DNA of 64,000 bases from an uncultured Nitrososphaerota archaeon (GCA_963824385.1 CAWGPD010000004.1:512001-576000), one strand, 5' to 3'. Shown: positions 1 through 62,000, counted from the first letter of the stretch. A program made the numbers and translations. Notes: a model not told the origin generated them from the letters alone.

Positions 1-1682
1 ATTGTATATCATCATGAATTACTTGTGGATCAGAAGTCAGCTTGAACCCTAGACAAAATTCCTCTAGATTGGTCAAGCGGGTAAATAATAGTGCTATATT
101 CCTCAAAAGCCATTACTACGCCTACTACAATTAATCCGAGTATACCAGCCAATGCAGCTTTATAGTAATTATTTGCCATTTTCTCCGCCTTTGTTGCGAC
201 TCTACTTCTTGATCTGCCTTTTTTAAATGTTGAATGAGATATGCTAAGATATGCAATATAAAGAAACCCAGTTACTTGAATGCCCAATATTGGAACAAAT
301 ATAGAATTATTGGAAAATATCGCAATAAACATACCCATTATGCCATATACTCCAAAGAATATCTCAAGAAGTGTAGTTTTGGTAAACGGAAGAGCATATG
401 CCTTGTCTCTCCAATCATCATCATTTTTTATTATTCCAAATTTTGGAGTACGTAAAAATTCATTTTTCTTTCCAAAAAATGCATCAAAGACTGCTACAGT
501 ATTGTTAACCGACATACCTGCAGAATAGACAATCAAATACAAATAAGAAAGTGCTTTTGATTTCCACTTTTTTTGATACATTCCTTGAATTACCATGATG
601 TATGCTACTGGCCCCATAGCTAGATATGCAATTACTGTTAATACTGGTAATCCACTTATGATGTAGAGATTTATTTTTGAAGCTAAAAGTATAGGCAAAA
701 TCAAAAACTGTGCAAGAACTAGTGGGTGCACAATATGTCTTGTAAGTTGAACAAAAGCCTGGATTTTCGTATCAACCGGAATTCTTTTGATTGTAACATC
801 TCCAAGTAATTTTATGGCACATTGAATAGAGCCTTTTGCCCATCGAAATTGTTGTCTTTTTGCAGAGTTCATTTGTACTGGAAGTTCTGCTTCTACCACA
901 ATCTCAGGAACAAAGACACATTTCCAACCTTTCATCTGAGCTCTATAACTAAGATCTAAATCCTCAACTAGTGTAGCAGTATGCCAACCACCTGAATCTT
1001 CAATACATTTCTTTCTCCAGATACCCGCAGTACCATTGAAACTCATAAACAGATGAGAATTGCTTTTTGCCTTTTGCTCTATTAAGAAGTGAAAATCAAG
1101 ACTAAGAGCTTGGGCCTTTGTCAGTGGAGAATATTTTTCATTAACATGGCCCCACCTACATTGGACCAATCCAATATTTGGTTTACAGAAATAGGACATT
1201 GCTCTTTTTAGAAACCATGTTGGGGGAATAAAATCAGCATCAAATATGGCAATGAAATCACCTTTTGCAGATTTCATTGCATTTCGAAGTGCACCTGCCT
1301 TGTATCCTTTCCTATCTGACCTTTGAATATGCTGTATATCAAATCCTTTCTTTTGATAGTCTGAAACTAGATTCTCAAGTAGAACTTGAGTCTCATCAGT
1401 TGAATCATCAAGTACTTGAATGGAGAGTTTGTCCTTTGGATAATCTAATGCACAGACTGCATGTATCAATCTAGCAGCAACATACTTTTCATTATATATT
1501 GGAAGTTGAAGAGTGACAGTCGGGATTTCTTTTAGTTCTATAAAGTCATTCTTTTTTTGATGTCTTGAAATTACTACTAGATAATAAAAATTGCACGTAT
1601 AAAGAGTGATAATCAGTGCAATCCATATGAAAACATTCCATAGAAATTGCGATAAAGGACTAGCAAGAATATGTGTCAGCAT
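1..1682 (-). CDS. GT2 cellulose-synthase-like glycosyltransferase (probably continues past the window edge; the stop at 30 looks like a +1 error near 38)
   Basis: QLPIYNE, KAGAL, FDADF, VEDLD and QQFRW motifs plus C-terminal TM helices; removing one base at 38 gives QATSDPQVIHDDIQ reading off the end. Confidence 0.9.
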
Positions 1683-1733
1683 TTAGAATTTTTCAACTCT
1701 GCAGTCTTTATAGCCGTACCGCTAAAAATTTCG

Positions 1734-2688
1734 CTATCCTTTCTTGGATATTTTTATTGCTTGAACAGGACATACGTTTTCACAAGCTAGACAAAATATG
1801 CAATCTGGTTCTCGTGCCATCAATGGTTTTTTATCAGAAGCCGGATTTCCTGCAAATTCAGCCCATTCGTAAACTTTCACAGGACATGCATCAATACATG
1901 CACCATCCCCTACACAAACATCATAATCAACTGATACAAATTCTCCCCAGATTCCCAGTATTTCATTACCCTTTCGGTGGCCGAATACTTTTATCTTGTG
2001 ATTAGATGGAGCAGTAAAAGTCTCAACGACTTTGAGTTTTGATTTAAAGTCCACATCAATTGGACCAGGCTTTGCTCCTGAAGGTGTCTCAGGCTCTGCT
2101 TCTTGTGCAACTTGTTGTCCTGGCGGAGGAGCCGCAGGCTTTGGTTTTGGTTTTGCATTTGGAACAATCTGAGACTAGTGGTGTGAGTTCCTCTAATTCT
2201 TTTAATGCTTGCTCAGGTGTTAATTGTTTCATTTTCACTCCATGCTCTACCATTTTGTCAGCAAGTACACTATTTCTTAGAATTGTATCAATAACCATTT
2301 TTGCATTGGCATCTGCTTTTCTCCTATAATCTTTAACCCAAAGTCCATCTCCATATTTTTCAACTGGATAAATTTGATAAATCATGTCCACGACTTCGCC
2401 AGTTACTATCTCGACTTGAACTTCAAGATCAATTTCCTTGTATCCACTATCATCTGGATCTGGTAAATTTTCTTCTTTCCAACGATACGTTGCATAAACT
2501 CTATCAGCAAATTTATCCATTTCAAAAACTTTCTTAAATCCACTAACTATAGAATCAATTTCATAGGCATCTTCTAGTTTTACTGGAAGACGATAAAGAC
2601 CTAGCTTGTAACTGTGTAAAGGATATACTCCTCTTTTAGATGTGGCTGATTGAACTGTATACACCTTATCCTTTAGCAGGAGGGACAT
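1734..2688 (-). CDS. Dicluster ferredoxin with a ~170-aa N-terminal domain (two ORFs joined across a +1 frameshift at ~2174)
   Basis: CVGDGACIDACP and CIFCLACENVCP motifs; repairing AGTCT to AGCT fuses 2089..2688 to 1734..2054 through a Pro/Ala-rich linker. Confidence 0.85.
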
Positions 2689-2725
2689 CTGATTTGTATA
2701 TGGAAAAAGAGTTTAAAAATGCTTC

Positions 2726-9813: not shown

Positions 9814-10500
9814 TTTGAAACCTCAATAGAAGCAGTACCCTTTGTTACCGATCCTAATCTGTCCATTACATTTGCTCTTGCCGCCGCCGGTATATCTAGT
9901 ATTACTTTGAGTCCACCGTTTGATTGCCATTCTTCTTTTTTCAAAGTTCCAAAGGACTTTAAAACAGAATAAGATTGTGCGGCAAATTGAGCCGGCACTA
10001 GAATTTCTAGAAGCATATTTTCAGACTTTAACGGAATTATCGATCGAAGTTGTTCTATTATTTCTTTTATCTGTTCATCAGTATTTCTAAAAGGATCAAC
10101 TGATACCCTTGCATCATCCATAGACTTGTTCTATCCTAAGTGGAGGATGCGGAAGATGGGATCTTGGATCAACATAGCTTTTAGCAATAAAGTCTACTAT
10201 TTGTTTACGTTTCTCAGACACCATCTTTCTTCGCTGATCAGTAGTAAGATTCAGTTCTCCTTTTTCAAGCATTATAGTAGCAATTACATTTGAGTCAGTG
10301 GTTTTGAATGCCTTCATAAGTTTCTCTGTAGATGCCCTTGTTCCTTTATTGGAATCAGTGTAAATCTCATCTGAAATCAATACTCCAGAGATGTCCTTAC
10401 GCTTACCTATCTTAAATTCCAAAGCAGGATCTGGTTTTACCAATATTTCGAACTTTTCTCCTTCTACTGAGAACCTCACGACTGTTACTTTGGTATCCAT
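9810..10500 (-). CDS. sbds: Ribosome maturation factor SBDS (frameshift at ~10124, probable sequencing error)
   Basis: KFEILVKPD, LTTDQRR, PHPPLRIEQ; repair gives EQAMDDARVSVDP. Confidence 0.92.
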
Positions 10501-10585: not shown

Positions 10586-11222
10586 TTGACTTCTTTAGAG
10601 ATTGTTGAGGAAAGTGGTAACAATATGGTTGTAAAATTGAAAGGCATACCTATTCAATATGCTAATGCACTTAGACGAATTTGCCTATCAGGAATTCCCA
10701 CATTTGCTATCGACGATGTTGTAATTATTGAAAATTCATCAGTTTTGCCTGATGAAGGAGTAGCTCATAGACTTGCAATGATGCCATTAAAAACAGATCT
10801 TGAGAGATTTATTGAGCCATCCGCATGTGACTGCCATAGTGAACTTGGTTGTAGTCGATGCAGAGTCTTACTTATGCTTGATTCCGGCAGTACAGATACA
10901 ACTCGTACAATAACTTCAGCAGAAATTAGCTCAGAAGATGAAGTTGTAAAGCCTGTTAGTCCTAACATTCCAATTGTTGCACTCAGCTCCTAGTCAGAAA
11001 TTAAAGGTTGAAGCATATGCAAGATTAGGCAGAGGCAGTGATCATGCCAAATGGAATTCTGCCACAGTCTCAGCCCTTACATCTACAAATAATCCCGATG
11101 AACATGTTTTATTGATAGAGACTACAGGTAGTTTGACCCCAAAAGAGGTTCTAAGAGCAGCCATTGAAGAGCTTGAAAAAAGATTAGGCGAATTCCAGAA
11201 GAACGTAGCCGCACTCGGTTGA
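10586..11222 (+). CDS. rpoD: RNA polymerase subunit Rpo3/D (frameshift at ~10984)
   Basis: ANALRR, NSSVLPDE.AHRL, IPIVAL[AP]SQKL, HAKW. Confidence 0.93.
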
Positions 11223-11610: not shown

Positions 11611-12083
11611 ACAAGTTACCGAAGTAAAATCATTAGAGAAGAATCCAGCTTCACAAACAATCATAGTGGATGGAACAAATTTAATTGCAGGTAGACTTTG
11701 TTCGCATGTTGCCAAACTACTCATAAAAGGAAATAGAGTATCAATTGTAAATTCTGAAAATATCATGATTTCGGGAGATAGAAAAGCAATCATAGAAGAA
11801 TATAGAAAGTTTTTGGAAGTAGCTAGTATCAATAATCCTAAATTTGGTCCATTTCATCCTCGTAGACCAGACACTATCATAAGCAGAATGGTAAGAGGAA
11901 TGCTACCAAAGAACAAGCCATCAGGTAAGACATCTTTGAAAAGATTAAGAGCTTATCTCGGAGTACCAAATGAATTAAGAATCAAAGAAGACAACACAGT
12001 TCGATGATGCAAAAATTAGAAGACCTTCTCCATATTATACAACTCTGGGAGAATTAGGTAAGATGGTTGGGTGGCACGAATAA
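11603..12083 (+). CDS. rpl13: 50S ribosomal protein L13 (frameshift at ~11980)
   Basis: DGTNLIAGRL, GPFHPRRPD, VRGMLP; repaired C-terminus ...TLGELGKMVGWHE*. Confidence 0.93.
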
Positions 12084-15777: not shown

Positions 15778-17048
15778 TTCAAATCCCTCGGATCAGTAAT
15801 CTTTCCTGTTATAGCAGATGCTGCTGCAACAAGTGGAGATGCAAGATATGTCTGAGATTCCACATGCCCCATTCTTCCTGGAAAGTTTCTGTTTGTAGTA
15901 CTGATACAAATTTCATCTTTTGCCAATACTCCCATATGAGCACCGCAGCAGGCGCCACAGGTAGGAGGTCCTACAACTACTCCAGCATCTAAGAAAATTT
16001 TCAACAATCCTTCTTCCATGGCTTTTCTAAATATCGATATTGCCGCAGGTAACACCTCAGTTCTTATTTTTACAGTTCGTCCCTTGAGAATTTTTGCTGC
16101 AGCTCGTAAATCTTCTAGCTTTGCACCAGTGCATGAACCAATGTATGCTTTATCAAGTTCAATTGAAGACAAGTCACGTGCAATAGCAATATTTTCAGGA
16201 GAGAATGGTTTTGCTACAGTTGGTTCTATTTCTGAACCTTCATACTCGTAAATTTTTTCATATTGAGCATCTGCATCACTATGAACTTCGTCATATTTTG
16301 TAGCTCCTTTTGCTGCAAGATAATCTCGTAATTTTTGGTCTGGTTCAACTATACCACTCTTGGCACCTGCTTCGGTTGTCATATTTGTTAGTGTCAATCT
16401 ACCTTCAACTGACATTTCGGATATGCCTGTACCTCCAAATTGCATTGTCTTGTATGCTGCACCATCATTTCCAATGTCTCCAATTATTTTCAATATCAAA
16501 TCTTTTGCCATCACATGATCTGGAAGTTTTCCATTTCACTTAAAGTATAATGTCTCAGGTACCTTGAACCAAATTTTACCATTTAATAAAACATATGCAA
16601 CATCTGTATGTCCAAGACCTGCCGCAAATGCCCCAAGAGCACCTGTAGTATTTGTGTGAGAATCTCCTCCAACATACACTTCTCCTGGAAGCACCATGGC
16701 TTCCTCGTGAGACAAAGTATGACATATGCCATATTGACCCATTCCATATTTGAAATGCTTCTTAATTCCAAATTGTTTTGTAAAGTTTGTTAGTGATACA
16801 ATATTTTGTGCTGATATTTTATCGGCTGCAGGTACAAAGTGATCTTCTGCAACCCACACTCTATCTGGATTCCATAATTTTTCAATTTTCATTCCAGTCT
16901 TCTTCAATTTTTCAAAAACTGCTATTACTCCTGGTCCAGATACATCGTGAATCATCACCTTATCAACATTAACAAAAATCACGTCTCCGGGGGAAACCTT
17001 TGATTTTCCAGAAGCACGGGCTAGGATCTTTTCAGTAATATTCAACAT
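15774..17048 (-). CDS. Archaeal-type (homo)aconitase/isopropylmalate dehydratase large subunit (HacA/LeuC family); in-frame TGA at 16536-16538
   Basis: ITEKILA, GICH, DSHT, GSCTG, CGACCG, RNFPGRMG; the two ORFs are in the same frame. Confidence 0.88.
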
Positions 17049-22419: not shown

Positions 22420-22480
22420 GATGCGTCTAGACGCTCATCAAATATTAATAATTCTATGATTTTTTTGAAAAGACGGTATA

Positions 22481-22621
22481 CTAACCGCCAGTTGCAGCAT
22501 CAAATAAGGCGCATTCACATTTATCACGTTCACCACAAAATGGGCAAACACATACACATTTTTCTAAAGGATTCCTACATTGGACACAAATAGCAAACTC
22601 ATCTTTGTGTTTCAATTGCAT
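22481..22621 (-). CDS. Cys-rich microprotein, 46 aa (below the ORF-track cutoff)
   Basis: Hand translation MQLKHKDEFAICVQCRNPLEKCVCVCPFCGERDKCECALFDAATGG*; 8 Cys; fills the intergenic gap. Confidence 0.75.
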   Translation of the reverse strand: MQLKHKDEFAICVQCRNPLEKCVCVCPFCGERDKCECALFDAATGG

Positions 22622-22754
22622 ATCATTACTTTGATTAATTATAAATGAGTTGTTGTAAAGGCGTAAAATGAATTAATTATGTGGATTTTTACTTGGGAAC
22701 AGTTGATTTTTCATCATGATACGCTTAAAATTGTCATTTACTCATTGAAAATAG

Positions 22755-23713
22755 TTGAAAATATTACTTACGCGAAGGCTTCATGATTTTGCTGTAAAGG
22801 AACTCAAAAAGAAATACGTTGTAGAAATCCACACTGGAAAGATTCCTATGCCAAAAAAATTACTGATATCAAAAATCAAGGATAAAGATGGCCTAATCTG
22901 TTACCCTTATGATTTCATAGATGCTGACGTAATTAATGCCGGGATTAAACTTAAGGCAATTTCTACCTATAGCGTTGGTTATGATCATATAGACATCAAG
23001 ACTGCTACGAGTAGAGGTATTACAGTTGGTTATACGCCAGAAGTATTGACCCGAGCTACTGCAGATATGACTATGGCTTTGATGTTATCTCTTTTTAGAA
23101 GAATACCTGAAGGTAACCAGATAATTCGCAAGGATAAATGGAATATAATATTTGGTCCCTATGATTTTCTTGGAACAGATCTATATCAAAAAACTCTAGG
23201 CATATTTGGAATGGGAAGAATAGGAAAAGCAGTAGCAAAAAGAGTGCAGGTTTTGAGATGAAGGTAATTTATCATAACAGAACTAGATTATCAATCAAGG
23301 AGGAAAAAAAAATAGGAGTAAAATACGTATCATTGAATAATCTTTTTAGAACAAGTGATGTTGTAAGTATTCATTCTCCGCATACACCTCAAACACATGA
23401 AATTGTGAATTTAAAATTATTAAAGAAAATGAAAAGAACTTCATTTTTAATTAATACTGCGCGTGGCAAAATAATTAATGAAAAAGATCTTGCAATTGCA
23501 TTACAAAGAAAAATAATTGCAGGAGCTGGACTTGATGTATTCCAAAAGGAGCCAATTAATTCCAAACATCCAATTGTAAAAACAAATAATTCTATACTAA
23601 CACCTCATAGTGGAAGTGCTACGATTGAAACTAGAAAAGAAATGGCAGAGATTGCAGTCAAGAATCTAGTACTTTCACTTGCTGGCAAAAAACCAATTTA
23701 CCAAATTAAATGA
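22755..23713 (+). CDS. D-2-hydroxyacid dehydrogenase (glyoxylate/hydroxypyruvate reductase-like; -1 frameshift at ~23244)
   Basis: VGYDHID, GIFGMGRIG, INTARG, AGLDVF, TPHSGS. Confidence 0.9.
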
Positions 23714-23732
23714 TATAATAATTAATTTAAAA

Positions 23733-23993
23733 TTAAAGCTCAATTAGATCATTTGGATCTATTTTGATACAACTAGTGCCTACAGGTTTTAAGCCAGTAA
23801 AATTAATAGTTCCTTGGGGAACTTTACCTTCTTTTTGGAGAGACTCTAACTTTTCAGTAAATGCATTTTTGTGCCCATCACATGCAACACCAACCATGTA
23901 TTCTCCATCTTCAGATTGGATAGAAATTACAAATTCAGGCGGCATTGGGCAATCCTTGCCCATTTTTCTAATAGAACAATGTTCAGGGAACAC
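23733..23993 (-). CDS. Small hypothetical protein, possibly Zn-binding
   Basis: CS-x7-C ... CDGH pattern in 86 aa. Confidence 0.65.
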   Translation of the reverse strand: MFPEHCSIRKMGKDCPMPPEFVISIQSEDGEYMVGVACDGHKNAFTEKLESLQKEGKVPQGTINFTGLKPVGTSCIKIDPNDLIEL

Positions 23994-27384: not shown

Positions 27385-27801
27385 TTTAATCCCTTGACAA
27401 GTTCTTTTACTCTAATTTCTATCCCATCTCTTATCTCTCGAACTTTCTCTATTGGCTTGTCTTTAGGATCCTCAATTCCCCAATCTACATACCTACCAAG
27501 AATAAGAGTTGGACATTCTGCAGTATCCATGCATCCCATATTCACCTTCAATTCTGCACCTCGGATTTGTTCATCAGATAACCTCTTTGCCTTGTGATTG
27601 CTGATATCTACTCCAGTCTTCTTTCATTACCTCTATTGCAAGTGGATTAACATATGATTTTGGAACAGAACCACCACTCATTGCACTCCAACCCTTTGGG
27701 GCATATTTTCTAAAGAAACCTTCTGCCATCTGACTTCGTCCAGCATTTTCTATGCATGCAAACAAGACATATTTTTCTGGTTTTTTCCCAAACAATCCCA
27801 T
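27381..27801 (-). CDS. arsC: Second arsenate reductase (frameshift at ~27617)
   Basis: CIENAGRSQMAE; after repair ...MGCMDTAECP...WGIEDP...KGLK*, with the stop overlapping the arsM ATG (ATGA). Confidence 0.85.
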
Positions 27802-29765: not shown

Positions 29766-30321
29766 AGTAGTATTTCACTGCATTTTTTGCCTGTTCAAGA
29801 ACTTGTTCAGGTCCAAGATCATCTGTATTTATTATTTTATCAAAGACAGAAAGGTCTTCTCCAAAATTAAAATCATAAAGCTTCTTGTATAATGTCTTAT
29901 TTTCATCGTATCTCTTTTTTACTATTCCCAATGCGTCTTGTAATGATATACTATCTCGCATTGTCATTCTTTTTGCACTATTTTCATGAGAACCTGCAAG
30001 CCAAATTTTAATTCCGTCTTTAACTAACCAAGGCAATGTGTCACTTGTTATGATTACATCTTCAGTTAGAAATATTTTTTTTAATTTTTCGTCAACTTCT
30101 TTATCAAATTCTGAATTTGCTTTTCTGATATTAAGAAAACTCATTCCTTCTGACGTATCCCAAAAATCATCATTATCTGTTTCAAAGCCTTGTTCCTTGG
30201 CCATTTCTTTTAGCACATCACCACCGCTAAGATATTTCAAGCCAAATTCTTCTCCCAATCCTTTTGCTATGGTAGTCTTTCCTATGGCTGGTGGACCAGA
30301 AATTATAACTGAACGAAGCAA
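29737..30321 (-). CDS. cmk: Cytidylate kinase
   Basis: ISGPPAIGKTT, SGGD; operon position. Confidence 0.9.
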   Translation of the reverse strand: MLRSVIISGPPAIGKTTIAKGLGEEFGLKYLSGGDVLKEMAKEQGFETDNDDFWDTSEGMSFLNIRKANSEFDKEVDEKLKKIFLTEDVIITSDTLPWLVKDGIKIWLAGSHENSAKRMTMRDSISLQDALGIVKKRYDENKTLYKKLYDFNFGEDLSVFDKIINTDDLGPEQVLEQAKNAVKYYYDTQTITKS

Positions 30322-30322
30322 T

Positions 30323-30956
30323 TTAACTTGTATCCATTGTAGTTTTTGTAACTCTCATTATGATACCACTAAAGGAGGCAGACGATAAGAAGTACCATGC
30401 CCAGAAATACAAATCGTTTACATGATGACAAATGTTGGGATTACCAGGAATTTGAGAAGATGCTACTTTTGCCGCAGTACAAGTTAATTCAAAAAATCCT
30501 CCAGGTATAATGTTTAACGATATTGGTGCAACAGACTACTGTATAGGAAAATAGTGGAGGAAGCACAAAATAGAATACTAGAATCAATGGGAGAAAAGTA
30601 ATCATCATAGGTCTCATATTCATTTGCATAACTTCCATGTTCATCTTGTTCATGTATGCAGATTTCTTGTTAAGCTCATCAGTTTTTTCTTGATCTTTTG
30701 ATTTGAATGCAGCCATTCTTTCCTTTTGCCAAGCTCTTGTTTCTTTGAGTAATCTTTTCAATTTATCTTGGTCAACCATCTTTCGTTTTATTATAGCATT
30801 AAGCAGATTAAGACCAATAGAGATACACATTATTCCTAAAGCAGCTGGAACCATTCCCTTTACTATCGGATTTGCACTTCCCATTGGACCCCTGTTTAGA
30901 CCTGGGATTTGTAGTGCTATTGTATTTATGAAATCAAAGAATATACTATGTTCCAT
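30323..30956 (-). CDS. EMC3/TMCO1 (DUF106, Oxa1 superfamily) membrane protein (frameshift at ~30535)
   Basis: TM-coiled coil-MRPMMITFLP; repaired C-terminus ...LYFWAWYFLSS... Confidence 0.85.
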
Positions 30957-31536: not shown

Positions 31537-32964
31537 GTAATGCACCCAGTGAAGGCATTACTTCTTCGACTCTTTCTCGAACAAGTAAATTGTAATAGTT
31601 AATCAGAATATCAACTGTCAACAACATTCCTGTCCCTGATCCAAATGTTCCTAGTACATCAGAAGTACCAGCTAACAATCCAAGTATCATAGAACCAATT
31701 ATAGTAACGGATGGAATATATTTTTGAAGTAGATTTTCTACTGGTTGATTTGAACGTCTAAAACCTGGAATTTGTACGTCAGCGTCAAGTAAGTTTTTGG
31801 CTGCACTCTTTGCAGAAAGACCACCAAGCTCAATCCATAACCTACCAAATAAGACTACAATTCCTATCATAAATAGAATATACAAAACAGACTCTCATTG
31901 GATCTAATGCAACAATATCCAAACCACGTGGTGCTGTAACATAGTACAGTATACCACCTGTTGGAGTGGATGGTGATGTAGGATCAAACATTCCTAAGAA
32001 ATTCAGGAACGGGTTTGCATTTCTTGGGTTAAAGTTGGCCCACATAATTTGTCCCATAAACACTGCGTTAGCAGTAAGAGCAGAAGCCAAAATTACTGGA
32101 ATGTTTGAAACATACATTAACTTGATTGGATATACAGCTGAGAATCCCCTATATTTTGTAGATACGATTGGGATTTCTATCTTGATTCCTTGAGTATAGA
32201 CAAGAATCAGTAATACTCCAGCTGTTATCAATAAACCAAATATGCCAGGCAATTGATTAGACCGGAAGAATAGATTAGTAAAATCATGATGAAGTGCACC
32301 ATGTATAATATTTGCAAATACACCTACTGGACCTCCATCTCCTGCAGGAACTGGACTGAATATACTCCAAATTACTTGTTGGGCTACACCTGCAGCAATA
32401 AACAAACTAATTCCACTTCCAAGTCCCCATCCTTTTTGTACTAATTCGTCCAACAACATGATTATCACAGATGCACCGATTAACTGTCCTATCAGAATGA
32501 AGATAGACTTCATGGTTGGGCATCCTTGGTCCATAAACTGCCATACCATACAGTGATGACTCGGCAATGATTACTATGTAAGTGACAATCTTGGTGGCTG
32601 TTTGATATAGTTCTCTGTCTTCTGGTTTCTTGAAGTCAAGATGGAATATCTCAGAACCTTTTAGAAGTTGCATTAAGAGTCCAGCAGTAACAATAGGTCC
32701 AATTCCAAGTTCTATCAATGTACCTTGCTGTGAAGCAAAAATTACTCTAGCAAATGCAAGAAAATCAAAGGATGGTGTTGAAGCTCCATAAAGAGGAGTT
32801 TGTCCCATAATCATGTAAATAAATAATGCTATTCCACACCACATCAAACGGACTTGTAATGGGATTTTCTTTTTTGGTTTTGGTACTTGTGGGATGTAGA
32901 CTTCAGCTTTTGAAATAATAGTTTTTAAAAAACCGCCAGAGGCTTTACCTTCTTCTGCTGTCAC
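31523..32964 (-). CDS. secY: Preprotein translocase SecY/Sec61alpha (two frameshifts, ~32507 and ~31891)
   Basis: ELGIGPIVTAG, KGWGLGSGISLFIA, YPIKLMYVSNIPVI, QIPGFR, GSGTGMLL. Confidence 0.95.
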
Positions 32965-33384: not shown

Positions 33385-33852
33385 TTACATCATTAACCTC
33401 ACTTGTGCTAAGAGTTCTTTATGACTACCAAGGACTCCCCCTTCGCCATACATCTTCTTGGTATTTCGTTTGAATCCATGTTTTGGCGGTGATAAAGCAA
33501 ACCATGGTTTAAGTGGTTTTAATTTAGATAATGTAGCAGTTCCCTCAGCAATTGACTTTGCGAGGTCATCTGTATTTTTGAATCCTAATTTTGTCATGTC
33601 TTCTGGAGTGATTTTTTTATAACCACCCTTACGTGCCTTTTTCTCCAATCACTCTTTGGTGGTTTGTACATCGATTTCTTGCCATGAGACATAATGTTTA
33701 ATCTTATCAAGCATACCTTTTGTGTTATCTTTTTCTGGAATTATTGTGGCACGGAATCTTTTGTCCAAGTGTAGAAGATCCATTGTAGTATCAGCCCAAT
33801 AAGGAACATTAACCGTTCCCTTCATTCTGACTATTAAGAAAGCTTTACCCAT
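33385..33852 (-). CDS. rpl30: 50S ribosomal protein L30 (uL30; in-frame TGA at 33649-33651)
   Basis: IVRMKG, GMLDKIKHYVSW, FALSPPKHG; both halves are in frame. Confidence 0.92.
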
Positions 33853-33860: not shown

Positions 33861-34497
33861 TCAACCCTGACTAAATGTTTGTCTCAAGCAGTCCAAAACA
33901 GACTCGTGATGTAGATGTCATGGTGTTTGTTGACCCTGTACTTTTTGTCCAAGCATCCTTCAAACCTGCTAATTTCAAAAGATTTCTAATATTTCCACCC
34001 GCTACAAGTCCTAGACCTCTTGGTCCTGGAATAACTTCTATTGTAACACTTCCACCTCGGCCCCTAATTTTGAATGGAACAGAATGTGGTTGTTCACATC
34101 TACATTCCCAACTTCCGCAACCAAGTTTTACTGGACTGACATTAAGATAAGCTTGATTTGTTGCTTTTTCAATTGCAATTCTCATTTGTTTTGATTTTCC
34201 TTGTCCTATTCCTAACCAACCATTTTCATCACCTGCTGCAACAAGTGCTTTAAATCGCGTATATTCACCGTTGGTTGTTTGTTTTTGAACAATTCCAACA
34301 TCAATTACTTCTGTTTTAATTCCTGGTAATAATTTTTTAATGATTCCAGCCTCTTGAATTCGATAACCGTTTTCATAAATTTCTTTCATTGTCGTAATCT
34401 TTTCAGTTGCAACTAGTGTTCCCAGTTTGGTCCTTGGAACCCACACCTGTTCTGGTTCTCTTCTTGGTGGTCTTGATCTTTGTTCTGTTCTACTCAT
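33861..34497 (-). CDS. rps5: 30S ribosomal protein S5 (frameshift at ~33902)
   Basis: WVPRTKLG, GCGSWEC.C..PHS, PRGLGL. Confidence 0.95.
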
Positions 34498-35031: not shown

Positions 35032-35945
35032 TTAGACTTGGAGTAGAAAAGCCATTAGTGCTTTTTGTGCATGAAGTCTATTTTCTGCTTCATCCCATAT
35101 TACGGATTGTGGACCATCAAGTACTTCACTTGTAACCTCTTGACCTCTTTTTGCTGGAAGACAATGCAAGAAAATTGCATCATGATTTGCTTTTTTCATT
35201 AAATTTGAGTTTACTTGAAAGCGAGGCAGAAAATCTTTTGCTCTATCCGTTGCTTGATGATGAATTGAAACAAAGGTATCTGTTACCACAACATCGGCAT
35301 TCTTTACAGCCAGTTCAGGATTACTATGTAATTGAATATTAATGAATTTTTTTGATTCTTTAATTACATTCGGATTTGGCTCATAACCTTTAGGAGTTGC
35401 AATGTTAATATCAATAGATACTTTCGCACATCCATAAATCATGGAATTACAAACATTATTTCCGTCTCCTATCCATGCAATTTTCAATCCATTAAGTTTT
35501 TTCTTTTTCTCTTTAATTGTCATAAGATCTGCCAATATTTGACACGGATGAAAGGAATCAGAGAGTCCATTTATTACAGGCACAGTAGAATTTTTGGCCA
35601 ATATTTCTACTTCGTCATGTAAATACACTCTAGCCATTATCAAATCAACATATCGTGAGAGTGTCTTACTGTATCTTCTATTGTCTCACCTCTTTTTATT
35701 TGGAGATCATCTGCAGACAAATTGAGAGCATGTCCACCTAGTTGAAACATTCCAGTTTCAAAGCTGACTCTAGTACGAGTAGATGGTTTCTGGAAAATCA
35801 TTGCAAGTGATTTATTTTTTAATAGTGGTTTGGAAATTCCTTTTTTAATATCCTTCTTTAATTTGATAGCATTTTCTAATATTTCTAATAACTCATGTTT
35901 ACTAAGCTCATTGAGTGTAAGTAGATCTTTTGTTTTTACTTTCAT
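35032..35945 (-). CDS. argF: Ornithine carbamoyltransferase (-1 frameshift at ~35669)
   Basis: [30 protein letters not shown]. Confidence 0.95.
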
Positions 35946-37436
35946 TTCTTCACCCATCCAAATAACGAGCGCTTCTTCTTAGGCCTTTTCATCATCTATT
36001 TCTGCAATCTCTTCTTTTGTAGTTTTTGATTCGACTTGTTGTTCTTGTTTTTTTGGTCGTCCTTGAGAAATCCATTTTTTAATATCTGATGCAAGTTTCC
36101 TTGCTTGTTCATCATTTTCAGGAGGAGGTGCATCAAAGAAGTCTGAATAATTTTCAATGTCTTTTGTTGAAATTCCTGCAAACGGATCTTCTTCTAAAAT
36201 TTGTTTTTCCTGTTCCTTATCAACAATGATTTTTGATTTTAGTTCAACTTTAGGTTCTGGTTTTAGTTCAACTTTAGGTTCTGGTTTTAGTTCAACTTTA
36301 GGTTCTGGTTTTAGTTCAACTTTAGGTTCTGGTTTTAGTTCAACTTTAGGTTCTGGTTTTAGTTCAACTTTAGGTTCTGGTTTTAGTTCAACTTTAGGTT
36401 CTGGTTTTAGTTCAACTTTAGGTTCTGGTTTTAGTTCAACTTTAGGTTCTGGTTTTAGTTCAACTTTAGGTTCTGGTTTTAGTTCAACTTTAGACTCCAT
36501 GAGTTTTTTCTGAACGTCTTCAATAATTTCTGCATGACCAAAGAGAGTTTCTAAAAATATATCTTTGTCAAAAGATTTCAGATCTTTATACTCTTGTCCA
36601 ACACCTAGGTAAAGAATTGGACTAGATGTTACTTTAACGATAGAAATAGCAGCTCCACCACGAGCGTCCGCGTCACTTTTTGTAAGTATGGCCCCATCAA
36701 ACTTTGTATAATTATGAAATTCTCTTGCTTGACTTACGGTGTCATTACCAGCCAATGAATCACCTACAAATAATTTAAGATCAGGATTTACTACTTTGTT
36801 AATTTTAGATATTTGATCCATCAAATTCTTACTAGTTTGCATTCTTCCAGCTGTATCAATTAATATACAATCTATTTTATGAGATTTGGAATAAAGCACT
36901 GCATCTCGAGCTACTGCTGCTGGATCTGATCCATAGTTTTGAGAGATAACTTTGATGTTCAATCTTTTTCCATGTTCACCTATCTGTTCAATTGCACCCG
37001 CTCTGTAAGTATCAGCTGCAGCAATCACAACCGAATATTTGTTCTCTCGCAAAAGATTTGCAATCTTTGCGATTGTGGTAGTTTTTCCGGTTCCGTTAAT
37101 ACCCATAAATGAGATAATGTATGGTTCTCCCTTGTCCTTCTTTTTTTGAATGTTAGATAAAATATCAACAGTGCCTGCTACATCAAACATATTTGAAATG
37201 CTTTTTCGAAGTTCTTGTTTTACAACTTCGGCAATCTTGTCCTTGTTAACGGTAGCACCGATTAATTGTTTTTTCAAGTCATCTTTTAGGGCATCAATTA
37301 CTTCTGTTGCAACATCAGATTCCAGTAATGCAACCTCAAGTTCAAACAAAACTTCGTCAATATCTTTTTCCTTTAGTTCCTTTTCTCCAAAACTTTTAAC
37401 CGCTACAGAAAATGCATTTCGTAGTTTTTCAAACAT
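35942..37436 (-). CDS. ftsY: SRP receptor FtsY with a long C-terminal extension (probable frameshift near 35982)
   Basis: [32 protein letters not shown]; repaired tail [14 protein letters not shown] overlaps the argF ATG. Confidence 0.93.
36237..36493. repeat. Perfect 24-bp tandem repeat, 10 full copies plus a partial, encoding (KVELKPEP)n in FtsY
   Basis: Unit TTTTAGTTCAACTTTAGGTTCTGG repeated without mismatch. Confidence 0.97.
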
Positions 37437-37447
37437 AATGTACTGCC

Positions 37448-37940: not shown

Positions 37941-38566
37941 TTATGCTTTTATCTTTGAAAGTCTTGCATCTACTTCATCCCAGTTTATTACATTCCACCA
38001 AGCATTTACATAATCTGCGCGTCGATTTTGGTATTTCAGATAATATGCGTGCTCCCAAACATCTAATCCCATTAATGGGATCAAACCTTTGGTTCGTGGA
38101 CTTGTTTGATTTGGCATTGTAGTAAACTCAACTTTCTTTGTCTGTGGATTGTAGGTTAACCAACCCCAACCACTTCCTTGAATAGCAATCGTATCCTTTA
38201 CGAATTTTTCTTTGAAACTATCAAAGTTTCCAAACACAGAATTGATAGGCTTCTTCTAAGCTTACCTCCTGGTTTTCCACCACCGCTTGGTTTCATATTA
38301 TTCCAGAATAGAGCATGGTTCTCATAACCTCCTCCATGGAAATTCACTGCACCTCTAACATTTTCTGGAACTTGATTCAAGTTTGAAAGTAACTTGGTTA
38401 GTTCCATCTCTTGCAATTCAGTGCTCAGATTTGCTAATGCATTATTCAAGCCATCAGTATATGCTTGATGATGTTTCGTGTGATGAATTTCCATTGTTCT
38501 GGCGTCAATGTGTGGCTCCAAAGAATCGTATGAATATGGTACTTTTGGAAGTTCATATTTTGCCAT
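37941..38566 (-). CDS. sod: Fe/Mn superoxide dismutase (two +1 lesions at ~38249 and ~38260)
   Basis: HHTKHH, NHALFW, QGSGWGW, DVWEHAYY. Confidence 0.95.
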
Positions 38567-38642
38567 AAGAATTCCAAGTTTTTCTTGCCATTTATGGCTT
38601 TGGTTGCAAATGCATTTTATCTGGTCTTGATGAAGACACCAT

Positions 38643-40679
38643 GTGATAGAGAAATCGTTAATTTTTTCTCTTGTTTTTGTGTTATGCATTTCATATTTTA
38701 TTTCATATTCTATTGAAGATGAGCAAAGTCTTCTTTCAAAGAGTATACAATTGGTTGGTGTTCAAATCCCAAGACAACATGGGTTAAACGGTCAAGGAGT
38801 AAAGGTGGGCATCATAGATACAGGAATTGATTTTAATCATCCAGATTTACGTGGGTATGGTCCTTTGGGAAGAGTTGTAGGAGGATACAATTATGTTGAT
38901 ACAAATGAAGAACCATTAGATACTAATGGTCACGGTACAGAAGTTGCTGGCATAATTGGTGCCAATGGTAATTTTTCAGGAATGGCTCCAAAATCTCAGT
39001 TATTCTCATACAAAGTATCGTCTACAGGGGAAGGTGTTTCCTCAGAATATATCATTCAGGCTATTTCTCAGGCCATAGATGACAAGATGAATGTGATAAA
39101 CATAAGTCTTGGAGTGAACAGAACAAATGACGGATTAGAAAATGCAGTAGATGAGGCAGTAAAAAAAGGAATTGTCGTTGTGACTGCAGCCGGAAATAAT
39201 GGCCCAGATAATGAAACAATTGGAAGTCCTGGAAGAGATGTTAATGTGATAACAGTTGGAGCGTCATATAATAACATAACATCAAGTCTTGTGTCAACTT
39301 TTGAGATTGAAAGTAAACAATATGATGCAATACCAATGCTTGGTGTAAGTGCTTTACAAAAGTCCATTGAAGGCAAGATAATTTATGGCGGATATGGAAG
39401 ATTAAAGGATCTTGAAAATATCAATGTCAAAGGAGCCATATTACTTGAGCAAAGAGGTAGTGATACAAAAGGTGAGAAGGTATTTTTTTCAGAAAAAGAG
39501 AAAAATGCTGCAGACCGTGGTGCAATTGGATTAGTAGTATTCAACAACAAAAGCGGAATTTTTTTTGGTGATCTCATAGGACCTAATTCTACTAGAGGTT
39601 ATCAGCCAAGAATACCAGTCATTTCAATATCAGGTGAAGATGGGCTCGAATTGAAATCAACATTAAGTAATAACACCATAGGCCACTTTAACATATTTTA
39701 TCATCCAGATTTTGTAGCACCATTTAGTTCACGTGGACCAGTCTCAATTTTTTATGTAAAGCCTGATCTTGTTGCTCCAGGAGTTTTTGTAAATACTACA
39801 ACGCTTGGTGGAAAATACAACATAACAAGTGGAACAAGCATAGCTGCACCACATGTTACTGGTGCTGTTGCCATATTATTACAAAAGTATCCTAATTTAG
39901 ATCCAGAATCAATAGCATCACTCATAACAACAACAACTGATCCCGTTACAGATGCTTATGGGAATATACTTCCACTAGAAGTTGCTGGCAGTGGAAGATT
40001 AAATGTCACCAGTGCAGAATCTGCAAATTTAATAATCATTCCACGTAGTTTAGAGTTCAATCTATCTTATGATCACCCTAATGAAACTAAGACTTTGAAA
40101 TTACGTGTAATTAATGATTCATTTATTCCAAAGGTTAAAAGTTAGATTTTCATCAAGTGAATCAAGTCTTGCTTTCAATTATGCCGTAATCAATAATACA
40201 ATAAATGCTCAAATTACAGATAACATAAAAAAGATAGGCAATTATGAAGGATTTATCATAGTCGATGATTCAAAAACTTTGTATCGAATTCCTGTTCTCA
40301 TTCATTTAACAAAGGGAACATTAAACGTAAATCAAAATAATGGACAGATAAATTTTTCAATAGATTATCCTGAAAAATGGTCATATGCAAAGATTTCTTT
40401 AATCAAATCGGATTCACATGATGTGAAAACAACCGCAATCACTCCAGACAATAATAGAACTCTAACTGTTCATAGTACAGGCGAATATTGGATCCAGCTG
40501 ACATCAAAATAGGAAATAAAACTGATTATGCATATCAAACATTGATGGTAAATCAGGTTTCAGAAAATATCGATTTTGAAGATATTCTACATATTCACAT
40601 TAAACAAGTAATGATTATTTCCTCAATTCTAATTATTGCAGTCATGGTTGGATCAGTAGTAAGACGTAGACAGAATTAG
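38643..40679 (+). CDS. S8 subtilisin-like protease with PA domain, N-terminal signal/anchor and C-terminal TM (frameshifts at ~40135 and ~40496)
   Basis: IIDTG, HGTEVAG, AAGN, FSSRGP, KPDLVAPG, SGTSIAAPHV. Confidence 0.9.
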
Positions 40680-52030: not shown

Positions 52031-54902
52031 ATGGACTGGACTTCACTTGAAGAAAAATGGAGACATATATGGGAAACTGAGAAATATTTTGAGACTGATC
52101 CTAATAATAAAAAAAAATTCTTTGTAACTGTAGCTTATCCATACCCCAATTCTCCGCAACATGTGGGACATGGTAGAACATACACACTAGCAGATGTTCA
52201 TGCAAGATTTATGCGCATGATGGGTTACAATGTATTATTTCCAATGGGGTTTCACTATACAGGAACTCCCATACTTGGCATGGCAAGAAGAGTTCAAGAC
52301 AATGACATAAAATTATTAGAAACATTTCGTAATATATACAAGGTTCCAGATGAGAAGATAAGAGAATTTACAGAGCCAATAAAAATTGCAGATTATTTCC
52401 ACCAAGAGATAAAGGCAGGAATGAAAGAGATGGGATATTCAATAGATTGGAGAAGAGAATTTACTACAGTAGATCCTGTGTATAGCAAATTTATTGAGTG
52501 GCAGTTTAAAAAATTAAAAGAAAAGAATCTGATAATTCAGGGCACCCACCCTGTAGGATGGTGTCCAAAGGATCAGAATCCAGTCTCTCAACATGATACT
52601 CAGGGAGATGTAGAGCCAAGTTTTACAGAATACACAATCATCAAATTCAAGTATGAAAAATATATCATTCCCACTGCAACATTACGACCTGAGACTATTT
52701 TTGGAGTAACAAACATTTGGATAAATCCAGAATTTATTTATGAAATCATCCAAGTAAATGATGAAGAGTGGATAGTAACAAGCGAATGCGCAAGAAAGTT
52801 AGAATTTCATAATAAAAAAATAACAAGATTAGATAAAATATCAGGAAATGAACTAATAGGTAAAAAAGTTCAGGTTCCTGAAAGAAATGATCAAGTTCTA
52901 ATTCTACCTGCAAGTTTTGTCAAAAGTGAGAATGGTACAGGCATAGTAATGTCAGTTCCAGCACATGCTCCTTTTGATTATCAAGCTTTAGAAGATTTGA
53001 AAAAAGAATTTACAAAATATCCTCATCTTTCTGAGATTCAAAAAATTAAAGTCTATACCAATAATTGCAACAGAAGGCTATGGGGAAATTCCTGCTCAAG
53101 ATGTAATAATCAGACTTCAAATTGAAAATCAGAATAATCCCAGATTAGAAGAAGCAACCAAAGAGATATACTCAAAGGAATTTTACAGTGGCAAATTAAA
53201 ACAGAATACTGGAAAATTTGCAAATAAAACAGTCTCAGAGGCAAAAGATGAAGTGAAAAAATGGATGCTACAAACTGGAAATGCAGATATTCTCTATGAA
53301 TTAAACGAGTCGCCCATAAGATGCAGGTGTGGTGTAGAATGTGTAGTAAAAATACTCAACAATCAATGGTTTCTTAACTATTCAGATCCGGAATGGAAAA
53401 CAAAAGTTCACTCATGGATAAATGAGATGAAAATTCTGCCAGAAGAAATTAGAAATGAATTCAATAATGTTGTAGATTGGCTCCGAGAGAGAGCATGTGC
53501 AAGACAACATGGATTAGGAACAAAATTACCATGGGACAAGAACTGGATAATAGAGAGTCTCTCAGATTCAGTGATTTACATGGCATATTACACAATAGCA
53601 AAATATGTAAACAGTAAAGAAATTACAGCAGAAAACACATCTGATATTTTTTTCGATCATGTGTTTCTGAACGAAGGTAGTTCAGAGATGGTCTCGTCTC
53701 AATGTAAAATAACATCAAACCTACTTGAGAAGATAAAAAATGAATTCCAGTATTTTTATCCAGTTAATGCAAGACACTCAGGTAGAGATCTAGTACCAAA
53801 TCATCTGACATTTTTTATTTTCAACCACATAGCAATATTTCCCAAGAAATACTGGCCTGAAGAAATTGTGGTCAATGGTTCAGTTTTAATGGATGGAAAA
53901 AAGATGTCAAAGTCTGAAGGAAATATAATTCCGCTTAGAGATGCCATAAGAATTCACGGTGCGGATTCTATAAGACTTGCAATTTTAATTTCAGCAGAGC
54001 TATTACAAGATGCAGATTTCAACCAAGAAGCAGTCAAAGGAATAAAGAACAAGTTAGAAAGTATGTTAGATGAATGCTCAAAATACAAATCTGTTCAGAA
54101 TGTCAAACTTGAACAGGAAGATAGATGGATAAAAAGCAAGATTGAACAATTGACTTTCATGACAACTTCATCAATACAAAAAATGAGATTAAGAGAAGCA
54201 TTACATTTCATACTCTACGAGTTTGAGTCAGATCTTCAGTGGTATATGAAACGAGTTACCGCAAAGAAACGTGAAGATTTCTCAGGAATCTTGCATGAAA
54301 TATTTTCTACAAGAGTAGCAATGATGTCACCTTTTGCTCCATATGTGTCAGAAGAAATGTGGTATAGATTAGGAAATCCAGGTATTGTATCAAAGTCTTC
54401 CTGGCCCACATATCATGCTGATAGTATTGACTTTGAATCAATTCAATCTGAAAATCTACTAAAAAATACGATGGATGATATAAAAAATATAATCAAGGTC
54501 ACAAAGATTATTCCTAAAAAAATAATAATTTACACACCAGCACCATGGAAAGTAAAGGCCTATCAGAAAATTTTATCTAAAGTTGTTGAAGGTGAGGTAA
54601 ACATAGGCACTTTAATAAAATCACTTATTGCAGACAAAGAAACAGAGGAAATAAAGAAAGATCCTGATTTTGTTAAAAAAACAGTTAATGATATTTTATC
54701 AGAGTCACAAAAAGAGAGAGAATCAAAAAATAGAATTGGCTTAATTGATGAAAAGAAAATTCTTTCTGAGCTAGATTCACTTGTACAAGCTGAATTTGGA
54801 ATTATGTCCCAAGTATTTGCAGAATCGGATCAAGACAAATATGATCCAAAAAATAAATCAAGAACAGCTAGACCATACAAACCAGCCATCTTAATAGAAT
54901 AA
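52031..54902 (+). CDS. leuS: Leucyl-tRNA synthetase (frameshift at ~53052)
   Basis: YPYPNS..HVGH, TLRPET, GTGIVMSVPAHAP, KMSKS. Confidence 0.96.
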
Positions 54903-58680: not shown

Positions 58681-58754
58681 GCCTTTTTTAAACTCGATCT
58701 CTTTGTGGGACATTTAAATCTTGATAGAAAGCACATGAGGAAAATGACATTTGA

Positions 58755-59072
58755 TTATTTCGTCTCTATTTCGAGTTCTTTTGTAATTGCTTTAAGATTA
58801 GTATCGCTTAGAGTCTTAAGCGATAGTGCAGAAATTCTGAATTGTGTTCCACATAGTCTACCAAGTTCAACGGAGGAGCCATTATAATTCAAAGTTGGAA
58901 CCTTTGAACTTTTAGCCACTTCTTGTATTTTTTCAAGCGTTTCTTCTGAAACCGAATGTGATAGGAGAATTAGTTTTGAATTTTTAATTGTACTAATTGC
59001 TTCTTTAGTACCAAAAGAGCATTTACCATCCTCAATTGCATCTTTGATTACTTTTTCTAATAGTTTAACCAT
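58755..59072 (-). CDS. rpl30e: 50S ribosomal protein L30e
   Basis: [11 protein letters not shown]; position after rpoA. Confidence 0.9.
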
Positions 59073-62000
59073 CTTGAACCACTCTCATGTAAAGATCAAC
59101 TGTTCCCGTGCCTATTGGAATATTTGCACCCACTATAACATTTTCTGTTACTCCCTTGAGTTCTTCAACTTCTCCTGCTAGTGCAGCTTCAGCAATTGTT
59201 GGAACTGTAATTTCAAATGCAGCTCTTGCAAGTACACTTGTCTTTGTTCCAGCAATTCCATGTCTTCCAATTTGTTGTAAATATCCTCTTGAACACATTA
59301 AATCAGATACTAACATGAGATATCTCACATCAACTTCTAGACCTTGATCAGATAGGGTAGAATTTAGTTCATTTATCAATGAATTTCGTGCAGCCTCTAT
59401 ACCCAAGACTACCTGCTATTTCAAAGATATTGTTTGTTCTGATATTTTTCTTATCTATACCATCTATCTCCCATACTTTTGCTATGTTAGAGCCAGAAGT
59501 TTGTATGACCCATTCTTCTCCTTGTTGTACGATTGTTACTCGTTCGACATCAGTAACACCTTTTACAGTAGTTGAAAGTATTTTGTTTCTCATTGCAAGA
59601 ACAGTTTGAGTATCAGATTCTTCTGGTAGTGTCAAGGTGATAGAATTTCCACTTGGTTCAATTTCGAATTTTTTCTTGGAAGACTGTAATGCGTCTACTA
59701 CATTCTCAATTGTACATGCTCTTTCTCTTAGCTTATCTTGATTAAGATTGAGTTTAATCTTTGTAGAATAATCAGTTTCAGTACTAGTGATCAATGCACT
59801 AATTTTTGTATGTAAGATTTCTCTGGCTACTTTAATTGCTTTTTCTTTTGATTTTTTATAATTTTCTTCCAGGTAGATATCCATTGTTGGTGTTACGGGT
59901 TTCTTTCTTGCATCTACAAGTTCAATTAATCTTGGAAGTCCTAGAGTTACGTTTCTTTCTCTGATACCTGCAAAGTGGAATGTTCTAAGTGTCATCTGAG
60001 TACCTGGTTCGCCTATTGATTGGGCTGTAACTACACCAACTGCTTGACCAGGTTCAACTTTTGCATTATCATAAAGTTCTAATGCTTTTTTACAGACTTT
60101 ATCAACACCATCTCTGCTAAGTTTTGATTCAAGTAAAGATTCGAGTACAGTTTTTGATAAACGTGGATTGAATGTCTTTGCATATTTTTTAACTAGTTCT
60201 GTAATTTCTTCCTTAGAAGCTTTCTTTCCAGAATCAATGATGCTCTCAGATTCTACCAATCTAGCAATTCTAAATGCCTCACCATGATCACTTTTTGCTA
60301 CGTCTATTCCATCTTCACCATAGAGGAATTGGATTATGTGACCATGAGGATCTCGTACTGTTCCATCATATTCTAGTTTAAGATGTTCAAGTGCATTGAT
60401 GAGTCTTCTTTGCATGTAACCACTTTGCTGTGTTCTAACTGCAGTATCGACAAGACCTTCTCTACCTCCCATAGCATGGAAGAAAAATTCTAGTGTTGAC
60501 AATCCCTCCCTATAATTGGATTTTACAAATCCCTTACCGTCTGGATTTGCATCATGTTCTTTGAAGTGTGGTAATGCTCTGTTACTGTAACCTTTGAGAA
60601 TTCTTCTACCTCTAATTGATTGTTGACCTAATGCACCTGCCATCTGACCAATGTTTAATGAAGAACCTCTAGCACCTGTTGTTGCCATTATTCTTCCTGC
60701 ATTAGTTTCATCAAAAGATTTGTCTGCAGAGTTTCCAGCTTTATCTCTTGCTTTTGAGAGTTCATTTACGATTTGAGCTTCTAATGCCTCTTCAGCAGAA
60801 AGACCTCTGCTAAGTTGTAGAGTACCCTTCTTTGCTTGAGATATGAAATCATATACTTTATCATATGATTCCTGAATGTTTTCAAGAATTCCATCTTTTG
60901 TCTTTGTTGCAAGTTCAAGATCAGCATAACCATAACTAAATCCATATCCAGTGATGAATTGTTTTAACATTATCAAGATGGAGTTAAGGAAATTCTTTGC
61001 CTCTTCATATCCATAATCTTTGGTAATTCTATGTAGAACACTATCAGGTTCTTCTGCACCAATTGATGCTTTGTCAATCACACCACTTACTAGTTGACCA
61101 TTTTTAATTACAACATCTTTTACAGGACCCTTTGTTCCCTTGGACCATTTTGAAGTAATAACATAATTGAAGTCCTTTGGTAAGAAAAGCGAGAAGAGTT
61201 GTTTACCGCTATAAAGTGAACCACCTTTTGCTTTAACTGCTGGCTCTGGGAATGTTCCAGTGTAACCACCCAACATTGCAAGATTTGCAAATTCTTGTGG
61301 TGTTAAAGTAGTACCATCTTTAGTAAGCAAATATGCTCCAGTAATGAAATCGCGTAATGCACCTATGATAGGACCTCCATATCTTGGAGAGATTAATTGG
61401 TCTTGAACACGCATTAAGAGTATAGCTTCTGCTCTTGCTTCTTCACTTTGAGGAACGTGAAGATTCATCTCATCGCCATCAAAGTCAGCGTTGTAAGGAG
61501 GACAGACTGATGGATGTAGTCTAAAGGTCTTGCCAGGTAATACTCTAACATAATGACCCATGATTGACATTTGGTGCAATGATGGTTGTCTGTTAAACAT
61601 TACAATATCACCATCAGAAAGATGTCTTTCTACAAGATATCCAATTTCAATATTATTTGCAATGGTTTCTCTATCTTCAACGAAATCAAGTCTAATTTTT
61701 ACTCCATCAGGTCTTACAATATAGTTAGCTCCTGGGAACTTACTTGGTCCGTTTACGACAAGTTTTTTCAGTCTTTCAATGTTCCATTCAGTAACAACTT
61801 CTGGAATTGTAAGTTTAGTTGCAACTGCTTCTGGAACTCCCACTTCAGAGATTTCCAAGTTTGGATCAGGTGAGATAACAGTTCTACTTGAAAAGTCAAC
61901 TCTTTTTCCTGATAATGAACCTCTGAATCTTCCTTCTTTACCTTTTAATCTTTGAGTGAGAGTTTTGAGAGGTCTTCCTGATCTGTGATGAGCTTGTGGA

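Follow-up and report, generated by a model that had tools for sequence, protein, structure and literature searches.

Gene-breaking assembly errors cluster on AGCT in a soil Nitrosotalea genome, a probable footprint of DNA methylation

Why should one 64,000-base stretch of an archaeal genome carry broken copies of so many conserved genes, with most of the breaks on a single four-base palindrome? The stretch, referred to here as the window, is G000:C4:512001-576000 (GCA_963824385.1), part of an assembly (G000) of 1,677,330 bases in 5 contigs that is 86% complete. An earlier note, made from the sequence alone, had listed about 21 gene-breaking lesions in it and had read their clustering on AGCT as the trace of a methylated motif. 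Our analysis supports that interpretation: the errors at AGCT, and more weakly at GATC, were very probably caused by N4-methylcytosine (m4C) and N6-methyladenine (m6A) in DNA read on a nanopore platform. The organism does not belong to the marine group on which the note had drawn for comparison. The nearest named homologues of G000 are Nitrosotalea proteins and records, amoA is present, and the public runs holding at least half of the window's words carry the label soil metagenome or metagenome. The source is a member of the genus Nitrosotalea, an ammonia-oxidising archaeon (AOA) living in soil. The 86% completeness has itself probably been depressed by the AGCT errors.

To compare the assembly with the same strain, Logan contigs from four runs of 23 listed (X1, X3, X6 and X8, from four studies and apparently short-read) were used for window positions 22000-41500, a stretch picked for holding 13 of the 21 lesions. 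All 13 (23243, 27615, 30533, 31889, 32505, 33650, 33900, 35668, 35982, 38247, 38258, 40135 and 40496) were repaired, each by at least two runs; at these sites the lesions are assembly errors, not mutations. The other eight (38, 2172, 10122, 10984, 11979, 16537, 53050 and 59406) were compared with relatives only. Eight long contigs of X1, covering 19,039 bases, depart from the assembly in 9 letters and 12 gaps; all of these were tabulated, so that the list is complete for these contigs. The differences fall at 18 sites: 14 at AGCT, one an extra C in AGGCT (35984) and three motif-free substitutions. AGCT sites with 2-base flanks make up 2.4% of the stretch, yet 14 of the 18 differences lie there (binomial probability 3e-22 for 14 of 15, with the three non-AGCT substitutions dropped; about 1e-19, calculated by hand, for 14 of 18). 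An indel is involved in 11 of the 14 AGCT errors and three are pure substitutions. Two substitutions, at 30042-30043 and 30326, had not been listed before; neither disturbs a reading frame, which means that the assembly also conceals false amino-acid changes. In all, 14 of the 57 true AGCT sites in the stretch were miscalled (about 25%, a figure biased upward by the choice of stretch), while none of the 59 GATC sites in it was itself miscalled, one lesion abutting both words. X1 may be the source sample of the assembly; X3, X6 and X8 come from other studies.

The whole window was also aligned to congener loci (nine genomes, 85-94% identical), and frame-changing indels were kept if common to at least 60% of the covering genomes. 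This alignment was blind to the earlier list and gave 30 indel rows. The letters described for the 21 lesions are present at every coordinate, and local multiple alignments at 25 sites showed that each of the 21 differs from intact relatives. Nineteen lie at or beside AGCT, one at GATC (11979) and one at neither (35982). Of two sites that had been left ambiguous, 40135 proved to be an AGCT lesion; at the other, 35982, an additional C stands in AGGCT, which puts the site outside the motif. Pfam agrees with the gene labels for SBDS, the Rpb3-like subunit, L13, the aconitase family, 2-hydroxyacid dehydrogenase, LMWPc, EMC3, SecY, L30 and S5, and likewise for carbamoyltransferase, SRP54, superoxide dismutase, subtilase, leucyl-tRNA synthetase (LeuRS), Rpb1 and Fer4.

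The bias towards AGCT extends across the genome. G000 was aligned with nearly all of the congener G015 (1,077,174 bases aligned) and with part of G041 (about 335 kb of G041 used; 315,278 bases aligned, 93% identity); indels with clean flanks were kept and scored by which genome's reading frame breaks. Against G015, 534 of 4,353 indels passed: 165 break G000 only, 53 break G015 only, in 288 neither frame was open and in 28 both were. AGCT stood in the repaired 10-base context of 72 of 161 one-base G000 frameshifts (2.7 expected) and GATC in 15 (3.7 expected). Against G041, AGCT accounted for 29 of 53 G000 frameshifts (0.9 expected) and GATC for 3. The merged set holds 189 G000 frameshifts, 184 of them of one base. 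When the word restored at the junction was tested over all 136 strand-merged 4-mers, AGCT ranked first: it came back in 70 of the 148 cases with an extra base, against an expected 3.6, and this unbiased alignment bears out the enrichment that had been predicted. GATC leads among the 40 non-AGCT cases, with 11 (1.3 expected). It is a second, weakly shown motif, and we make the weaker claim for it because a loose 17-base word count found no enrichment (14 against 12.0 expected) and only the tighter junction test was positive.

The error spectrum is strand-symmetric about the AGCT palindrome. Of the 148 extra-base lesions, 70 insert A or T at the centre, 22 put C in front of the palindrome or G after it, 5 are doublings, 9 involve other neighbours, 14 fall on or next to GATC-like words and 28 are unexplained; 16 of 36 missing-base lesions fit loss of C or G. 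Runs of four or more identical bases hold 6 of the 184 one-base lesions, which upholds the view that these are not homopolymer-length errors. As a separate observation on word use, CTTA/TAAG (0.67), GATC (0.73), GTAC (0.77) and GAATTC (0.70) are under-represented in G000 by Markov expectation.

Further assemblies of the genus that consist of few contigs show errors of the same types. Private frameshifts in the window region number 7 in G024, 3 in G067, 2 in G076, 2 in G015 and 1 in G003, and those repairable to AGCT are 7/7, 3/3, 2/2 and 1/2 for the first four; none passed the filter in this region in G002, G004, G014, G017, G018, G023, G041, G061 or G074. Genome-wide, 10 of the 50 one-base frameshifts of G015's own restore AGCT (0.8 expected). 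Congener loci with AGCT errors are L002, L009, L023, L033, L047, L150, L152 and L154 (G024, G067, G076, G015 and G061); fragmented, presumably short-read relatives show none or one each. Individual sites fail repeatedly, 23243 and 30042 also in G024 and 30326 also in G024, G061 and G067, and the error is therefore systematic and context-dependent.

Both methyltransferase genes that such a pattern calls for are present in G000. One intact PF01555 DNA methyltransferase gene lies at C4:401980-402828 (E value 2.8e-42), some 110 kb ahead of the window and on its contig, in keeping with the prediction that the enzyme would be encoded outside the window. Its product carries SPPY and then DPFVGSG, the S-adenosylmethionine-binding motif of FxGxG type, which is the layout of a beta-class N4/N6 enzyme; SPPY is typical of m4C enzymes. 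The SPPY enzyme is persistent, with matches in 58 of 60 congeners, most at 76-96% identity. Within 1.5 kb stand 3-dehydroquinate synthase II, Alba, a 101-amino-acid open reading frame (ORF) and type I dehydroquinase, the synthase and the dehydroquinase being genes of the shikimate pathway, and no restriction enzyme was recognised in this interval (the 101-amino-acid ORF was not scanned), as for an orphan methyltransferase. A Dam-family gene lies directly behind amoA at G000:C3:101675-102422 (L182 1347-2214). A six-frame scan of G000 found only two amino-methyltransferase catalytic motifs in methyltransferase genes. The SPPY enzyme is 50-52% identical to a protein in 6/6 genomes of family f15 and 89% identical to a Nitrosotalea okcheonensis protein, whose source we take to be strain CS. 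These identities, the f15 distribution and the entry for CS in a published table, which gives that species HG19 (AGCT, m4C) and HG3 (GATC, m6A) (PMC10609329, Table S3), suggest that it is the HG19 AGCT m4C enzyme of published cluster 383. Homology and the same table likewise point to AGCT and GATC as the targets of the two G000 enzymes.

Two further candidates were rejected. The second PF01555 match in G000 (on C2) is TIGR01177/Trm14-like and probably an RNA methyltransferase. The PF01555 enzyme of Nitrosopumilus type, which has DPPF, is too distant (24-27% identity) to be an ortholog of the SPPY enzyme; it has no match in G000 and occurs in 1 of 60 congeners. Some features of the methyltransferase loci are recorded here for themselves. 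Alba (L076 2383-2682) and the SPPY gene (L076 1429-2280) share a strand, the latter following directly behind the former; in 37 of 39 Nitrosotalea loci the two lie no more than 1.5 kb apart, and the f15 homologue (L230) likewise has dehydroquinate synthase II as a flanking gene. The Dam-like gene is itself split in the assembly beside AGCT then G, the second commonest error type, as judged from the frame and the G015 alignment, and the copy of the methyltransferase gene in G061 is frameshifted too. In G015 a second gene of the SPPY clade (L124 7872-9996, on G015:C3), some 50% identical and split in two, adjoins a third gene resembling methyltransferases; the pair may be a mobile restriction-modification locus.

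We envisage that the genes would be intact in the living organism, that an orphan beta-class methyltransferase would methylate AGCT to m4C on both strands and a Dam-like enzyme would methylate GATC to m6A, and that the DNA sequenced was native and the platform a long-read one, most probably nanopore as judged from the 5 contigs and the error pattern. A modified base would shift the signal, the base caller would repeat its mistake in most reads and the error would survive into the consensus. Were the strain to carry genuine mutations or programmed frameshifts at AGCT, the deposited sequence would show the same letters, and eight sites have been compared with relatives only; this explanation is nonetheless practically inconceivable, having been refuted at all 13 sites covered by same-strain contigs, and fragmented relatives are almost free of such lesions. 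Moreover, secY (twice), L13, L30, S5, LeuRS and two RNA polymerase subunits are hit, and these cannot all be lost. A base caller or polisher might also be weak in the context of AGCT without any modification of the DNA. That only about a quarter of AGCT sites are wrong in the tested stretch would suit such a fault, as would the failure of the same sites in independent assemblies, from which flanking context clearly matters. It is weakened by the identity of the two enriched words, which are exactly the motifs predicted for the two methyltransferase genes of G000 and are reported as methylated in relatives, and we hold it to be very improbable. Modification of AGCT by another chemistry or enzyme (phosphorothioate, 5-methylcytosine (m5C) or the product of a gene missing from the incomplete assembly) seems very improbable. 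Errors cannot type a modification, a limit stated by others (PMC11610603), and for Methanocella a review tabulates an m5C enzyme with AGCT as its target; set against this are the two catalytic motifs of the six-frame scan, the published assignment of m4C for the genus Nitrosotalea (PMC10609329) and the lack of any PF00145 (m5C) or DndD match in G000, a weak negative in a genome 86% complete.

Several points weigh against methylation as the cause of the errors. Methylation and platform have been deduced, not observed, eight of the 21 sites were compared with relatives only, and the specificity of the enzymes was taken from homology and a published table. Neither motif fits 28 of the 148 extra-base lesions. 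AGCT is not depleted in G000 by Markov expectation (observed/expected 1.01), the reference-free 4-mer test being uninformative, and aligned AGCT counts are nearly equal in G000 and G015 (2666 vs 2675); the aligned count is lower in G000 than in G041 (782 vs 914). Retention of 4-mers at aligned columns is dominated by CG-rich words and is also uninformative. Finally, published errors at modified sites are mainly substitutions, whereas 11 of 14 here involve indels.

The two PF01555 enzymes, both candidate AGCT methyltransferases, replace each other almost perfectly across 95 genomes. Among 120 genomes from a single class-wide draw (completeness 90% or more, E value at most 1e-40), the SPPY enzyme matched 18/86 genomes of family f1, 0/3 of f9 and 6/6 of f15, and the DPPF enzyme 69/86, 3/3 (46-48% identity) and 0/6, respectively. 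The DPPF enzyme is 24-27% identical to that of G000; the two clades were set side by side with L076 1429-2280 against L225, L226, L227 and L233. All 17 f1 genomes that lack the DPPF enzyme carry the SPPY enzyme, and 95/95 genomes of the three families carry one or the other; the counts are of related genomes and are not independent. G136 is the only genome of the draw with both, and the four stops in its partial DPPF match may be assembly error. The other 25 genomes gave no SPPY match and one DPPF match; within the genus, G044 carries both enzymes. Such near-perfect mutual exclusion is as expected for non-orthologous replacement of one function. We do not offer the pattern as new, as PMC10609329 already reports that HG11, HG16 or HG19 confers AGCT methylation and suggests that they share an epigenetic role; our result gives a sharper outline to a pattern that was known before it. 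It is a tentative thought, and one we consider possible rather than probable, that mesophilic AOA cannot do without N4-methylation of AGCT as a function of the chromosome and keep it by strict one-for-one replacement between two distant enzymes, the position of the gene behind alba hinting at a chromatin or cell-cycle role. If true, the assembly errors would be the first evidence of AGCT enzyme activity in Nitrosotalea, and public long-read archaeal assemblies could be mined for active methylomes without raw signal. Reading motifs from errors in this way, as the earlier note proposed, does work in print; the idea is not new, having been published already (PMC10687267, PMC11610603).

The lesions in the window are collected in the table below. 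Some differences in the window are not errors. A one-base difference at 28740, common to G024, was first read as a shared error; it is real variation, because X1 covers the site and agrees with the assembly, and the difference at 34992 is likewise real. At 27019-27024 there is a compensated pair of indels (one extra and one missing base, five bases apart) relative to 3/3 relatives; X1 matches the assembly, which makes this a genuine short frame change or local rewrite. The motif-free substitutions at 36722, 37266 and 38190 separate the assembly from X1, X3 and X6. X8 carries the assembly letter at 36722 and 37266, as do all relatives at 36722, and both are therefore natural alleles. The three lie within 1.5 kb and the remaining 19 kb are identical apart from errors; the cluster is possibly a short tract recombined between strains.

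Table. Lesions in the window (window coordinates), with the runs or relatives that bear on each
Position	Strand	Lesion	Gene	Basis
38..42	-	extra C directly 5' of AGCT	glycosyltransferase-2 gene (30..1682, minus), near 3' end	absent in 3/4 covering relatives; Pfam; relatives only
2172..2176	-	AGACT for AGCT, frameshift	4Fe-4S ferredoxin-domain gene	A missing in 4/4 relatives, AGCT in 2; Fer4 in downstream piece; relatives only
10122..10126	-	AGACT for AGCT, splits gene	SBDS	AGCT in 4/4 relatives; Pfam; relatives only
10984..10988	+	extra C before AGCT, splits gene	RNA polymerase subunit D (Rpb3-like)	absent in 5/5 relatives; Pfam; relatives only
11979..11983	+	GAATC for GATC, frameshift	ribosomal protein L13	GATC in 5/5 relatives; Pfam; relatives only
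16536..16540	-	two-letter substitution at AGCT (plus strand TCACT), false TGA stop	aconitase-family gene	AGCT in 5/5 relatives; Pfam; relatives only
23243..23245	+	AGCT minus C, splits gene	2-hydroxyacid dehydrogenase	repaired in X1, X3, X8; relative G024 has its own AGACT there
27615..27619	-	AGTCT for AGCT	LMWPc/ArsC-family gene	repaired in X1, X3, X6, X8; Pfam
30041..30045	-	two-letter substitution at AGCT, missed by the earlier note	within cytidylate kinase gene	X1, X3, X6, X8; AGCT in 13/15 relative loci, AGTCT in the other two (both G024)
30325..30328	-	AACT for AGCT, substitution, missed by the earlier note	just 5' of cytidylate kinase ORF start	X1, X3, X6, X8
30533..30537	-	AGACT for AGCT	EMC3/TMCO1-like gene	repaired in X1, X3, X6, X8; Pfam
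31889..31893	-	AGACT for AGCT	secY	repaired in X1, X3, X6, X8
32505..32509	-	AGACT for AGCT	secY (second lesion)	repaired in X1, X3
33649..33653	-	two-letter substitution at AGCT, false TGA stop	ribosomal protein L30	X1, X3, X8; Pfam
33900..33904	-	AGACT for AGCT	ribosomal protein S5	repaired in X1, X3, X6, X8
35668..35670	-	AGCT minus one base	carbamoyltransferase (argF-like)	repaired in X1, X3, X6; Pfam
35981..35986	-	extra C in AGGCT; sole indel error of the short-read stretch not at AGCT	SRP54-family gene, near 3' end	repaired in X1, X3
38247..38251	-	AGGCT for AGCT	superoxide dismutase	repaired in X1, X3, X6; Pfam
38259..38263	-	extra T 3' of AGCT	superoxide dismutase	repaired in X1, X3, X6
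40132..40136	+	AGGTT for AGCT (extra base and substitution)	subtilase-family gene	X1, X3
40495..40499	+	A missing directly before AGCT (GATC abuts)	same subtilase-family gene as 40132 lesion	X1, X3, X8
53050..53054	+	AGTCT, frameshift; repair to AGCT presumed	leucyl-tRNA synthetase	one base fewer in 5/5 relatives, AGCT in none; Pfam; relatives only
59406..59410	-	AGACT for AGCT	RNA polymerase Rpb1-like large subunit	AGCT in 4/5 relatives, one base fewer in 5/5; Pfam; relatives only

These results are mainly a warning about quality. In a genome that represents its species, about 1.1 Mb aligned hold at least 189 false frameshifts, and by extrapolation the whole probably has several hundred to a thousand; false stops and false amino-acid changes add to that and are invisible to frameshift filters. 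Claims of gene loss or pseudogenes are unsafe for this assembly and for G024, G067, G076 and G015. The errors are also indirect evidence that the predicted Nitrosotalea AGCT methyltransferase is active, and the near-perfect exclusion of the two enzymes makes the role of AGCT methylation in AOA worth testing.

The class of artefact, the motifs and the enzyme groups are all known already. Our search turned up no publication that treats AGCT errors in assemblies of archaea, nor one on the methylome of Nitrosotalea, which is no proof, as it missed most subscription papers and bioRxiv supplements. One close likeness is to the errors treated by Modpolish (PMC10687267) and Hammerhead (PMC11610603), which are recurrent consensus errors at modified motifs found via relatives or short reads; nanopore error sites yielded GCAGC and GCTGG in Listeria and, across eight bacteria, 16 motifs. 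Substitutions make up most of those errors, which come from bacterial isolates, whereas here gene-breaking one-base indels at AGCT predominate in an archaeon, and AGCT is absent from the main text of both papers. The target itself is familiar in AOA. Single-molecule real-time (SMRT) data for a Nitrosarchaeum genome showed m4C at 96% of AGCT and m6A at 98% of GATC sites, with two methyltransferases (PMC6329791); M.Nca01I, M.NspBD3I and M.TarMY3I are AGCT m4C enzymes (PMC11033074), and AGCT is modified in two marine thaumarchaeal genomes (bioRxiv 10.1101/2021.05.08.442635). M.Nca01I and M.NspBD3I share target, modification and AOA hosts with the system proposed here, and the distribution of the DPPF clade, rather than their sequences, suggests that they belong to that clade and not with the SPPY enzyme of G000. 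Another close parallel is the survey in PMC10609329, where HG11 (Nitrosopumilales) and HG19 (Nitrososphaerales and Nitrosotalea CS) are persistent AGCT orphan methyltransferases, persistent meaning at least 75% of a taxon, HG3 is Dam-like, and Nitrosotalea CS stands in cluster 383 (the HG19 column by counting) with strain MY3, which has PacBio data; the word 'displace' is absent from its main text. The survey has the same motif pair as G000 and includes one Nitrosotalea genome, which carries no PacBio mark, and to this G000 adds an error footprint as an indirect sign of activity.

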